Part shown: one piece after another, positions 33,001-36,000 of the stretch
Numbering within the stretch: position 1 is the first letter of the stretch
Layout of the letters: each line of letters opens with the position of its first letter
DNA from: Candidatus Sulfobium sp.
GTDB taxonomy: Bacteria > Nitrospirota > Thermodesulfovibrionia > Thermodesulfovibrionales > UBA6898
NCBI GenBank assembly: GCA_037380845.1
Contig: JARRRI010000004.1
Location: 52,252-116,251, forward strand
Direction: 5' to 3'
DNA: 64,000 nucleotides
Position numbers: made by a program

Positions 33001-36000
33001 TTAGGGTAACGCCCCTGCCTTCGGCATCCCCTCTTAAGATAAGAGGGGGAAGGAGGAGTTATGATTCCGGGGGGCTCGTGTGCTATTTCTCGACCGTGCC
33101 CCTGAAGACATCCTTTATCTTCTTAAGAATCTCCGGATGGACATACCTGTTTCCCGCAACCACATTCCCTGTCGAAAGAAAATCGGTCCCCCCTCCAAAG
33201 TCGGTGATCATCCCTCCAGCCTCGGCTATCAGAAGGCTTCCGGCGGCTATGTCCCAGGGACTCAGCTTCAACTCGAAGAAACCCTCGAACCTGCCGGCTG
33301 CCACGCAGGCAAGGTCGATGGCGGCCGAACCGGCGCGCCTGATGTCGCTCACCTCTTCGAATACCCGTTTGAATGCCCTCAGATAGAGGTCGATCATCTC
33401 CTTCGCCCTGAAGGGGAAGCCGGTGGCGATGAGGCTTTTTTCGGGTTCTGTTGTCTCAGACACCCATAATTTTCGGTTGTTGAGGAACGCCCCTTTCCCA
33501 TTCACAGCGTGAAACAACTCGTCTCTCACCGGGTCGAAGACCACGCCGATGACCAGCTCCCTTTCGTATTCGAGCGCGATTGAGACCGAAAACATCGGAT
33601 ATCCATGGATGTAGTTCGTCGTCCCGTCCAGCGGGTCTATGATCCACCGGAAATCTCCCGTGTCATCCTGCTTCAGCGTCTCCTCCGTGAGAAAGCGGTG
33701 CGACGGGAATTTCTCCCTTATCGTCTGCATGATCACCGCCTCGGACCATCTGTCCACCTTTGTGACGAAGTCGAAGGCCTGCTTGTTCTGCACGTCTTCC
33801 TTAGAAAGACCGCCAAGGTTTTTGATGATGATGTCGCCCGCAAGCCGCGCAGCGGAGACGGCGATCTTTAGAAACTTGTCAGGGAGGTTATCCGTCATGA
33901 TTAAAATGATATCACATCTGTGACCGGCCATCCTGTCTGCCTGGTTGACAGTCAGAGCCCCTTTATCGGAAAATCACTCATGAAGCTCCTCATGTTCTAC
34001 ACAAAGGAATGGTGGTACAGGACGGCGGCAAAGACGCTCGAAGAGATGCCCGACCTTGACAGGGAAGAGAAAATTGAATACGCCGCCGTCATATTCTTTC
34101 ACTGTGAAGCAGAGGATGAAAATGACTTTGACGGCATCGTCAAGAAGTTTGCAAAGAACACAAAATGGCTTGCCGGCAAGTTTGATACGAAGAACGTTGT
34201 CCTCCATTCCTTCAACCATCTCTCGTCAAGCAAGGCCCCTCCTTTTATTGCGAAGAGAGTGCTCGATGAGGTGAAGTCGAGGCTGGAAAAGACAGGATAC
34301 CGCGTAATGACGACCCCCTTCGGGTACTTCAACGAGTTCAGGATGCACGTCGCCGGCGACTCTCTGGCGAAGGTCTTCAAGGAGTTTTGAACGGATCATC
34401 CCTGAACATGAAAGTTCGCTGCAGAAACTCAGATGTCTTCCGTAACCGGCGGATTCGTAGAAAATCGTCATACCCGCGAAGGCGGGTATCCAAGTCAGAT
34501 AGAACGCTTGAAAGAATGGATTCCCGATTGAGGACTTCGGGAATGACGGCTCAAAAAAAGAGGTTCACATCCGCTGAAAGGCCTTGTTATCTCCGGCCGG
34601 CGCTTCCTCTCTGTCTCACCGCCTCGTAAAGGCAAATGGCTGCCGACGAGGCGACGTTGAGGCTCTCAGCACCTCCGTAAATGGGTATTTTGACCGTAAG
34701 GTCGGCCTCTTCCTTCAATTCCCTGCTTACCCCGTGCGCCTCGTTCCCGAAGGCAAAGGCACCAGGATACGTAAGATCGGCATCATACAAAATATCGGTT
34801 GCATCGGGGGAAGTGACGGTCATTTTAATGGAACGCTCCTTCATCCATTTCATGAGCGGCGCAATTTCTGTTTCCACCACCGGGATGTTGAAGACGCTGC
34901 CGGCCGAGGCCCTCAGGGGCTTGGGCATGAAGGGGTCGCATGTCCCCGGCAGGAGGACCACGGCGTGGGCACCGGCGGCGTCGGAGGTCCTGATGATAGT
35001 GCCCAGGTTTCCGGGGTCCTTTATCCCGTCCAGAACGACGACCATAGGCGGACCCGACGTTTTCACTCTTTCCAGCCGGAGCGGCCGATATGAAACGACC
35101 GCGCTGCCACTTTCCGGACGACTGAGGTAATTGTCCCCGTCCCGGCAGGGTCTTGTATCGTCTTCCGGCGAAAGCCGACGGAAACACTTGGGACCGTCGA
35201 TCATAAATTGCTGTCATAACAGGGAAAATTGACTAAATCTGCGGTATTATTTTAGAGTAGATAAATACCACAGGAGGGCGAAATTGACGAGCGCAGTTGA
35301 AAATATCAGCGGTACCAAGAAACGTCTGAAGATAGAAATACCGACCGACGTTGTGGAGAAAGAATACACGGAGTCGATCGACAAGGTGAAACAGAGGGCC
35401 AGGATACCGGGTTTCAGGCCGGGCAAGGCCCCCTCGAGCCTGATCGAGAAAAAATTCGGAGAAGACATAAAGGCTGAAATCATTGACAAGCTGGTACCCC
35501 GGTACTATTCCGATGCCTTGAAAGAAGCGGAACTGGTTCCGGTGACGATGCCGGAGTTCGAGACGGCGGTTGAACTGAAGAGGAACGAGCCCCTTTCCTT
35601 CGCCCTTACGGTTGAGGTGAGACCGGCGGTGCCTGACTTCGAATATACGGGACTCGAGGTGGAGGAGTCCGTCCCGGAAGTGGAAGAGAAAGAAATAGAC
35701 GAGATGATCGAGGGGTTGCGGGAAGAGAGGGCGATGTTCGAGGCCGTGGACAGGGAGATCAGGAAAGACGATCTCCTGGTAATCGATTACGTTAAGCTCG
35801 ATCCCTCCGGCGAGAAGGAACTGTCTTCAGCGAAGGAGCAGGTAATGGACCTCGGCAACAAGCTGGCCCCCCCGGCAATACTCGAATCCCTGGTAGGCAG
35901 AAGGAAAGGCGATTTGGTGGATATATCGGTGCCCTCATTCGAAAAGGGTGAGGCAAAGGAAGAAGAGCCGGGCGGCGGGAGCCTCGTCAGGATAACCGTC

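Follow-up and report, generated by a model that had tools for sequence, protein, structure and literature searches.

A stand-alone, Lys-type homologue of the archaeal threonyl-tRNA synthetase editing domain in Candidatus Sulfobium sp. and its probable role as an acyl-tRNA deacylase

Three jobs have been characterised for the DTD fold, namely the removal of D-amino acids or glycine, of serine from tRNA-Thr and, in animals, of alanine from tRNA-Thr, and all members tested act on acyl-tRNA. In the editing domain that archaeal threonyl-tRNA synthetase (ThrRS) carries, here called NTD, F117 stacks on the adenine, K121 positions the catalytic water (PMC4491819), E134 holds the alpha-amino group across the subunits, and the 2'-OH of the tRNA does the catalysis. 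The exchange K121M severely compromises all three NTDs tested. E134 is dispensable in PabNTD, and E135A kills MjNTD; an earlier note on this DNA had invoked both the role of K121 and the dispensability of E134, in agreement with the cited work. NTDs with Y120A or E134A retain their selectivity for Ser over Thr (the portion of the source on these variants reports no Lys mutant), and the pocket side chains therefore need not set specificity, which in the three tested NTDs is set by backbone and RNA. The archaeal domain prefers U73, and Gly-tRNA(Gly) is cut faster by NTDs than Ser-tRNA(Thr).

Bacterial stand-alone tRNA-Thr-ED proteins, including some from Nitrospirota, were listed by Mukai et al. 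in 2017 (PMC5424206, Text S1, Fig S4), who noted the replacement of Glu135 by Lys/Arg and suggested hydrolysis of aminoacyl- or hydroxyacyl-tRNA. Their list contains Nitrospira bacterium SG8_35_1, Desulfovibrio, Thermodesulfatator, Syntrophobacter and Bacteroidales, and Fig S4 also shows stand-alone proteins from Microgenomates, Methanosarcinaceae and Methanomicrobiales. The Lys/Arg-type family is thus not new; an activity assay of it was not found in the literature. Added here are the loss of K121, the changes Y79H/P80S, a basic helix and a set of phyletic tests.

The gene and its surroundings

The window, which is the whole stretch of 64,000 nucleotides that was analysed, contains the gene and its neighbours as follows:

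31997..32788, + strand: NIF3/DUF34 gene (23 of 81 loci; local synteny only)
33083..33931, - strand: inositol monophosphatase (SuhB-like), divergent neighbour (18 of 81 loci; local synteny only)
33945..33974, + strand: sigma-70-like promoter, TTGACA-18-GAAAAT, matching at 10 of 12 positions
33980..34390, + strand: stand-alone tRNA-Thr-ED (PF08915) gene with Lys-type pocket, 136 aa
34587..35204, - strand: SpoU-family RNA methyltransferase, convergent neighbour (21 of 81 loci; local synteny only)

The 136-aa open reading frame is bounded by stops and has neither an anticodon-binding nor a catalytic domain. PF08915 matches it in full length (residues 1-135, 142.7 bits), PF02580 (DTD1) does not match, and the protein scores below the NCBIfam equivalog cut-offs. 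It matches the archaeal NTD structures 4rrf (E 4.6e-14) and 1y2q (E 8.3e-12), which bears out the earlier assignment of the frame as a homologue of the editing domain in archaeal ThrRS. Codon changes relative to the related locus L007 are 49 synonymous and 19 non-synonymous: this is a genuine gene under a strong purifying pattern.

Two sigma-70-like sites were found, as compared with 0.6 +/- 0.9 in shuffled sequence. Since the promoter-like site ends 5 nt upstream of the ATG and a Shine-Dalgarno sequence is absent, the transcript is probably leaderless. The same layout is seen in three of the seven related loci compared (L011, L013 and L017).

A conserved operon was considered and rejected: the commonest neighbours in the 81 loci (NIF3, SpoU, TPR proteins with 20 loci, and SuhB) reflect the synteny of one lineage, and the neighbours are different in two other phyla. 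In relatives without the suhB insertion NIF3 abuts the gene (TAG-ATG). A mobile element was also rejected, the plasmid and phage searches giving zero matches. Near the family loci 14 tRNA genes were counted in 175 loci, none of them for Thr, Cys, Gly or Sec.

The pocket, the basic helix and the predicted dimer

The residues Y79, P80, A82, H83, Y120, K121 and E134 of PabNTD align with H76, S77, N79, H80, F117, N118 and K131. They lie in three of the following four segments:

34145..34180, + strand: basic helix K56-K59-K62-W63-K67, not found in synthetase-fused domains
34205..34219, + strand: HSFNH motif, residues 76-80, corresponding to YPFAH 79-83 of PabNTD
34316..34336, + strand: PFGYFNE, residues 113-119, with F114 for the adenine-stacking F117, which is kept, and F117/N118 for Y120/K121
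34355..34381, + strand: GDSLAKVFK, residues 126-134, with K131 in place of the cross-subunit E134; K134 is conserved

Of 1148 homologues the best 120 were compared: LHSFNHL is found in 119, as the earlier note had it, and PFGYFNEF in 111 (110 had been counted before); the statement that most members are 136 aa long holds for 98 of these 120, which have exactly this length. Conservation beyond these close relatives was assessed with 113 divergent family representatives and a second set of 115 further proteins. In the HSFNH motif of the divergent representatives H76 is kept in 110/113, S77 in 105/113 and H80 in 108/112. Position 131 is Lys in 58 and Arg in 30 of 89 divergent representatives (88/89 together), and Lys or Arg in 115/115 of the further proteins. 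At the K121 site, position 118, the divergent representatives have mainly Leu (27), Asn (25) and Cys (23 of 89), and the second set has Leu throughout (115/115). The Y120 site, position 117, is Phe in 46, Ser in 15, Leu in 9 and Val in 9 of 92, and the A82 site, position 79, is Ala in 56, Thr in 29 and Asn in 12 of 112. In the canonical group K121 is present in 29/29 and E134 in 28/29. The adenine pocket is kept (F/Y114 in 85/92, G115 in 90/92, A/T/S91 in 101/107), and positions 126-128 read GDS, GES or GHP. Family-wide are therefore Y79H/P80S, E134K/R, the loss of K121, a side-chain pocket variable at 79, 117 and 118, and the new basic helix. The pocket replacement described in the earlier note stands for P80S, for E134K (K/R in the family as a whole) and for the retained H83, whereas its YFN and A82N are confined to the Nitrospirota branch. 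Y79H, which is invariant, had been overlooked, as had the basic helix.

In the basic helix W63 is conserved in 96/103, K67 in 99/106 and K59 in 82/101 members, and the net charge of residues 55-68 averages +4.5 in the family (n=102) versus -0.1 in synthetase-fused domains (n=29). The helix is a candidate contact for the tRNA acceptor stem.

The predicted fold superposes on 4rrf_B with Z 19.5 and an rmsd of 2.2 over 134 residues, has a TM of 0.84-0.86 and is DTD-like also by comparison with DTD1/ATD (Z 11-14.6; DTD 13-14.6, ATD 12.7). The homodimer prediction scored 0.84, the best of three controls 0.01; 20 of 30 solved pairs reach the mark applied to this score, as does 1 of 23 single chains. 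The prediction runs agreed in at least 96% of contacts, with a pLDDT of at least 92. The protein is thus predicted to be a homodimer in which K131 enters the partner's pocket at the archaeal Glu134 site, contacting the partner's F78 and H80, although the dimer pass may stem from likeness to solved NTD dimers.

Distribution and candidate substrates

The family is a widespread bacterial one: 5890 proteins match at E<=0.001, although other short PF08915 proteins may be among them. Carriers make up 40 of 151 genomes in the order sample, in line with the 79 of 316 given earlier, and 32/251 and 31/251 in two further samples, so that most relatives are without the gene. In a tree 137 family rows stand on one side and 30 canonical domains on the other (SH-aLRT 97). 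The protein is single-domain in 58 of 60 loci from two other phyla, the other two being canonical fusions. Among 8000 candidates, a search for long proteins returned ThrRS of the archaeal type in 18 cases and a single ComEC-like read-through; in this weak search for informative fusions the latter (P0272), a ComEC-like N-terminus joined via apparently out-of-frame sequence, was the only family fusion. A metagenome scan with one divergent protein as query gave 6 loci, and matches in the ESM Atlas were to PF08915 clusters only.

The host ThrRS is of the bacterial type and, as had been claimed, keeps its editing site (HSTSHVMAH and DLCRGPH). Several gaps that the protein might fill were considered and rejected. 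At least two ThrRS/AlaRS editing domains (PF07973) occur in 39/40 carriers and 40/40 non-carriers, which speaks against rescue of ThrRS editing or an AlaX stand-in. Replacement of DTD1 is at odds with its presence in 26/30 carriers versus 15/30 non-carriers (partial matches counted), in 20/20 versus 16/20 of a second sample (a weak stop-containing match left out) and in 19/20 versus 17/20 of a third. For a YbaK/ProX/INS (PF04073) stand-in there is no pattern (34/40 carriers versus 37/40 non-carriers).

We consider it probable that the protein is a trans-acting, RNA-assisted deacylase of some acyl-tRNA. The trans-editing deacylase with another substrate proposed in the earlier note is upheld in so far as fold, adenine pocket, dimer and retained ThrRS editing agree with it; it is weakened by the loss of K121 and by the finding that Ser/Thr specificity was not set by the pocket side chains in the three tested NTDs, and the proposal was already in print. 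Judging from homology and conservation, the protein would fold and dimerise like the archaeal domain, with active sites at the interface; F114, G115 and the small residue 91 would hold A76, the basic helix, standing in for the anticodon-binding domain that is missing, would grip the acceptor end, the 2'-OH of A76 would activate the water, and backbone amides would form the oxyanion hole, as in NTD and DTD. Because the amino-group binding site is charge-reversed, an unusual acyl group is probably removed. The partner's Lys/Arg131 at the site of the alpha-amino-binding Glu134 would disfavour ordinary aminoacyl-tRNAs, including Gly-tRNA(Gly), and substrates with a neutral or anionic alpha-group, most simply alpha-hydroxyacyl-tRNAs (lactyl-, glycolyl-), would be hydrolysed whatever their side chain, so that proofreading would be directed at the alpha-substituent and not at the side chain. 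We tentatively propose, as one possibility, tRNA-bound acyl groups without a charged alpha-amino group as the substrate class. Lactate is activated by AlaRS. At the loci examined no neighbour or fusion pointed to hydroxy acids.

It is in favour of this reading that position 131 is near-invariantly Lys/Arg whereas the side-chain-pocket positions 79, 117 and 118 vary. Against it stand the crippling of NTDs by K121M together with the family's loss of K121, the selectivity that NTDs retain with Y120A or E134A, and the absence of the gene from most relatives.

Archaeal-type chemistry on similar substrates (Ser- or Gly- on U73 tRNAs, e.g., tRNA-Thr and tRNA-Cys), with the water-positioning Lys moved from 121 to the partner's 134 and the enzyme serving as a second-line sieve, is unlikely. 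It draws on the backbone- and RNA-based specificity of NTDs, on K121 only positioning water while K131 is predicted to lie in the pocket, and on U73, the archaeal domain's preferred base, in the host's tRNA-Thr(CGU), tRNA-Gly and tRNA-Cys. However, the carriers' ThrRS editing domains are intact, the exchange E135A is fatal in MjNTD, and bacterial Gly-tRNA(Gly), if it has U73, would be attacked as well by a free enzyme of the NTD kind (Mukai et al., 2022; PMC8762117).

A selenium-linked proofreader, which would select an anionic selenolate through Lys/Arg131 and remove the Sec-tRNA(Cys) that CysRS produces, or else free tRNA(Sec)-like tRNAs of Ser/Cys, is quite unlikely. In a sample of the phylum of genome G152 selA is found in 30/30 carriers versus 55/77 non-carriers (Fisher p 2.6e-4 ignoring kinship), and the absences look real since the selA-negative non-carriers tested also lack selD (10/10) and selB (3/3). 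Carriers fall into at least five lineages of an AlaRS tree, and in the host there are selA and a TGA-containing selD, along with tRNA-Sec and another GCA tRNA that resembles tRNA(Sec) and has U73. Yet the p-value overstates the link, because the independent carrier lineages number only 5-6 and the Sec-less lineages 3-5; the comparison is uninformative in a second sample, where selA occurs in 42/44 versus 102/107, and in a third, with 13/13 versus 13/13, none of selA, selB and selD shows up in carrier G751 (which may be due to the assembly), no Sec gene or tRNA-Sec was among the neighbours scanned, and the link may be a proxy for an anaerobic lifestyle. Microgenomates, Methanosarcinaceae and Methanomicrobiales are not known to use Sec. 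Published members come from these three groups (Fig S4 of PMC5424206), which argues against a universal selenium role. It is improbable too that the family recognises, through the relocated Lys/Arg, the selenolate of Sec mischarged on U73 tRNA(Cys) and hydrolyses it, guarding Cys codons in Sec-using anaerobes; no link between the family and selenium proofreading was found in the literature.

Equally doubtful is a deacylase that complements DTD1 and acts on amino acids which are D-enantiomers or acidic (D-Asp, D-Glu, cysteine sulfinate, phosphoserine), the carboxylate or phosphate pairing with Lys/Arg131. The DTD fold, the predicted positive pocket residue and the N-terminally truncated DTD1 of the host fit with it, but the Gly-cisPro motif (NXGPVT) is absent, positions 126-128 being GDS/GES/GHP, DTD1 is present in most carriers and commoner there than in non-carriers, and neither a racemase nor SepRS or SepCysS is among 86 neighbour proteins scanned.

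A non-tRNA enzyme, with a small acyl-ribose nucleotide such as O-acyl-ADP-ribose as the ligand or substrate of its adenosine pocket and basic helix, has a similarly low probability. An ADP-ribosylglycohydrolase gene overlaps the start of the gene in 7 of 81 loci, NUDIX lies upstream in L052 and L108 and Sir2 downstream in L112, and K121 is lost. Such neighbours are, however, a lineage-bound minority, unrelated ones (folP, epimerase, hydrolases, kinases) are equally frequent, and every DTD-fold member tested acts on acyl-tRNA. It also speaks against this reading that in O-acyl-ADP-ribose it is the other ribose, not that of the adenosine, which is acylated.

A decaying or catalytically dead remnant, to which the loss of K121 and E134 and the patchy presence might point, is very improbable given the strong purifying pattern, the fixed length, the invariant new residues across several phyla and the gene's own promoter-like site.

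The family's probable fourth DTD-fold job follows from a charge-reversed pocket together with no gap filled in the known editing set. If hydroxyacyl groups are removed, the enzyme would be a natural guard of the identity of the peptide-bond backbone, and a tool or obstacle for genetic code expansion with ester bonds. If Sec is removed from tRNA-Cys, this would explain the exclusion of Se from Cys codons in organisms that use selenium, and for the first time there would be an editing activity that acts on the Se/S error of CysRS.

Comparison with known systems

With the Lys/Arg groups of Mukai et al. (2017) the protein shares the single PF08915 domain, the missing anticodon-binding domain and K131 at the Glu135 site; it is matched to them by taxon names and the Lys residue, and there is no shown difference. 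Their description of the other ligand residues as well conserved differs from the present family, in which K121 and Y120 are not conserved.

The archaeal NTD (ThrRS-ed) has fold, length, the predicted dimer interface and the equivalents of F117, G118 and H83 in common with the protein. It is, however, fused, whereas the protein is free-standing, with HSFxH for YPxAH, S77, F117, N118 and K131 for P80, Y120, K121 and E134 (K121 being lost and E134 K/R in the family), a variable GHP and a basic helix, and belongs to a separate clade.

The tRNA-Thr-ED proteins linked to SepCysS or SepRS (PMC5424206; PMC8762117) belong to the same Pfam family but have the canonical serine pocket. For example, the bacterial SepRS fusion in our sample (L099; YPYAH, WYK, GHPRSE) groups with the canonical domains, and SepRS or SepCysS was not seen beside family members at the examined loci.

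DTD1 and ATD, finally, share with the protein the DTD-like fold and would also share the free-standing dimer, side-chain-independent recognition and RNA-assisted catalysis, but are only 11-16% identical to it, and the protein has neither the SQFTL/PQATL nor the NXGPVT/TNGPYTH motif.

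The gene and its surroundings

The protein under study is encoded by the following feature of the window:

33980–34390, + strand: open reading frame of 136 aa (target gene)

The PF08915 match spans the whole protein (142.7 bits), while the protein scores far under the NCBIfam cut-offs for both ThrRS and Ser-tRNA(Thr) hydrolase. Codon differences from four relatives fall mostly at the third position. In a homologue search with the protein, 1148 of 1158 candidates had E ≤ 0.001, the named close relatives being Nitrospirota of the Thermodesulfovibrionales type. Upstream, TTGACA-18-GAAAAT ends 5 nt from the ATG and the start has no Shine-Dalgarno sequence; judged from these signals, the message may be leaderless. 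The site recurs in three of the seven relatives inspected, and in two of the seven the NIF3 stop codon adjoins the gene instead.

A REP-like palindromic element (34466–34548), whose first 26 bases have 34 matches in the genome with at most four mismatches, lies between the target gene and spoU. In close relatives (loci L009:2754-5982, L008, L010 and L012) suhB is separated from the target gene by an insertion that holds a DUF1156-like DNA methyltransferase and a second ORF. The neighbours NIF3 (23), SpoU (21) and SuhB (18 of 81 loci) are local synteny; ADP-ribosylglycohydrolase (7) and folP (5) are scattered among the same loci, and other phyla have a different set. Twice a tRNA-Arg(ACG) gene is located immediately upstream of the family gene (L046:5917-5993, L155:1417-1493).

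Conservation and predicted structure of the family

The target protein can be aligned with the archaeal ThrRS editing domains (NTD) MjNTD (4rrf) and PabNTD (1y2q), and the pocket changes described in the earlier note were reproduced: PabNTD Y79, P80, A82, H83, Y120, K121 and E134 correspond to H76, S77, N79, H80, F117, N118 and K131. Among the best 120 of the 1148 homologues, 119 have LHSFNHL, 111 PFGYFNEF (previously counted as 110) and 98 exactly 136 aa. When 50%-identity representatives were searched with a profile, 770 matched; the best 150 were aligned with the query and sorted on residues 76–77 into 113 members of the stand-alone bacterial family and 29 canonical domains of the archaeal ThrRS type; nine fragments gapped there were excluded.

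In this alignment the family conserves H76 (110/113), S77 (105/113, partly circular because residues 76–77 defined the split), H80 (108/112; the H83 noticed earlier as kept), F/Y114 (85/92), G115 (90/92), K/R131 (88/89), K134 (70/83), W63 (96/103), K67 (99/106) and K59 (82/101). Positions 79 (A56, T29, N12 of 112), 117 (F46, S15, L9, V9 of 92) and 118 (L27, N25, C23 of 89) vary, so that "YFN" and A82N, taken before as family traits, are branch marks. The proposed change of E134 to Lys stands as a family-wide change of charge, but Lys is not the sole residue: in 115 more proteins from another branch residue 131 is Arg (86) or Lys (29), and residue 118 is always Leu. Canonical domains have K118 (29/29) and E131 (28/29), and the net charge of the basic helix is −0.1 versus +4.5 in the family. 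As read from the alignments, the family signature combines HSFxH and the basic helix with E134K/R and the lack of K121. A quick tree was built from 167 rows, after any row containing over 25 gaps had been removed; in it 137 family and 30 canonical rows lie on opposite sides (SH-aLRT 97). An intermediate subgroup (P0194, P0202, P0259), which combines HSFxH and GHP with Arg/Lys in place of Glu134, branches between them.

The AlphaFold2 monomer model (pLDDT 84, low at C-terminal residues 128–136) resembles NTD (TM 0.84–0.86; Z 19.5, rmsd 2.2 over 134 residues), DTD (Z 13–14.6) and ATD (Z 12.7). The predicted homodimer scored 0.84 (best control 0.01), above a mark that 20 of 30 solved pairs but also 1 of 23 single chains reached; the runs share at least 96% of their contacts, with pLDDT of at least 92. 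The protein may have passed because it resembles NTD dimers that are already solved. In the predicted homodimer K131 contacts F78 and H80 of the partner subunit. Computation shows the DTD-like fold, the dimer model, the kept A76 pocket, the cross-subunit Lys and the retention of other editing systems (adenine pocket and DTD/ATD motifs after Ahmad 2013, Routh 2016 and the ATD preprint).

The target gene is real and well conserved, and the family with its key substitution was already catalogued in 2017: that paper describes stand-alone tRNA-Thr-ED proteins as widely distributed, with Nitrospirota, delta-proteobacterial, Bacteroidales, Microgenomates and methanogen members, and marks residue 135 as Lys or Arg (Mukai 2017, PMC5424206). 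A published assay of the family was not found in a literature search that had most subscription papers and bioRxiv supplements outside its reach, and apparently there has been none to date. Further literature was consulted (PMC11295145, PMC5389517, PMC7609411, PMC5322559, PMC5029168, PMC13149037, PMC7373986).

Distribution and other editing systems

PF08915 was found in 40/151 genomes of the host's order, 104/315 of its class, and 32/251 and 31/251 of the phyla of a Desulfobulbaceae and a Brocadiia genome, respectively. The 60 loci read from the latter two phyla comprise 58 of the family, one SepRS fusion and one archaeal-type ThrRS. L099:170-2086 holds the bacterial SepRS fused to a canonical editing domain, and L123:4-1908 the archaeal-type ThrRS, in a genome of the Brocadiia-containing phylum; Mukai 2022 (PMC8762117) describes SepRS fusions in which a serine motif is conserved. 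Family source names also include Atribacterota, Bacteroidales, Marinimicrobia, Zixibacteria and Cloacimonas, and searches of plasmids and phages gave no match to the family.

The host ThrRS is, as reported before, bacterial-type with both editing motifs. In phyletic tests, where kin among genomes are not independent and the completeness of genomes reached through loci is not established, DTD1 was present in 26/30 carriers (genomes with a PF08915 gene) vs 15/30 non-carriers, 20/20 vs 16/20, and 19/20 vs 17/20. The family does not replace DTD1, which most carriers keep. At least two PF07973 domains occur in 39/40 carriers, and PF04073 in 34/40 carriers vs 37/40 non-carriers. The host DTD1 (L001:475-1848, host contig G000:C65) is without profile positions 1–31 and is joined in frame to the C-terminal end of a DinB-like polymerase; the fusion probably arose by deletion and left the DTD crippled. 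The sole tRNA-Thr found in the host assembly is CGU with U73 (G000:C20:852-927); tRNA-Tyr and tRNA-Ile(GAU) were not found there, and the host tRNA set is therefore incomplete.

Candidate substrates

In NTD the alpha-NH2 is held by E134 of the other monomer, catalysis requires the A76 2'-OH, K121M displaces the water and severely compromises activity, and Gly-tRNA(Gly) is cleaved faster than Ser-tRNA(Thr); E135A kills MjNTD, and Y120A/E134A NTDs of Pab, Pfu and Ap retain Ser/Thr selectivity (Ahmad 2015, PMC4491819). Mukai 2022 (PMC8762117) argues that Gly-tRNA(Gly) of bacteria would be at risk from a canonical domain that is not fused. By homology, the family would hydrolyse 3'-acyl esters aided by the 2'-OH. 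The basic helix would capture tRNA in place of an anticodon-binding domain, and Lys/Arg131 would disfavour a protonated alpha-amino group, so that the free enzyme would be safe for Gly-tRNA(Gly). We tentatively regard alpha-hydroxyacyl-tRNA as the simplest substrate class, in line with the suggestion in Mukai 2017 (PMC5424206) that aminoacyl- or hydroxyacyl-tRNAs are hydrolysed.

Editing of Ser/Gly as in NTD, by means of a Lys that has changed position, is rather unlikely, and editing of Sec-tRNA(Cys) is improbable. The latter is favoured by selA in the third phylum, that of the Brocadiia genome, with 30/30 carriers vs 55/77 non-carriers (Fisher p 2.6e-4; archaeal-ThrRS genome left out, carrier G593 counted on a partial match), an effectively small sample because an AlaRS tree (35 of 38 fetched genomes) spreads the carriers over no fewer than five lineages and the Sec-less genomes over no fewer than three. 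Among the 22 selA-negative genomes, selD was absent in 10/10 checked and selB in 3/3 checked. The selA counts in the host's class (42/44 vs 102/107) and the second phylum (13/13 vs 13/13) are uninformative. Against Sec-tRNA(Cys) editing, carrier G751 shows no selA, selB or selD. Fig. S4 of Mukai 2017 also names some groups that are not known to use Sec. D-residues or acidic residues, and likewise a small acyl-ribose nucleotide, have slight probability as substrates, and decay is most improbable.

The host has a normal tRNA-Sec(UCA) on C31 and a 94-nt tRNA(Sec)-like tRNA (G000:C62:31154-31247, L153:7155-7248) with GCA anticodon, 8-bp acceptor stem, U73, G3:U70 and long variable arm, just 5' of a selenium YedF gene (TIGR03527, L153:7273-7878); it resembles selC* tRNA-Cys (Mukai 2017 NAR). 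The host SelD (G000:C20:72213 onward, in-frame TGA) matches strongly at profile positions 1–173 only, and an internal part that should follow the KARPGDALVLT motif appears to be deleted.

As for the hydrolysis of alpha-hydroxyacyl-tRNA, the variability of the side-chain-pocket positions suggests that the family would leave the substrate side chain unread, as DTD does.
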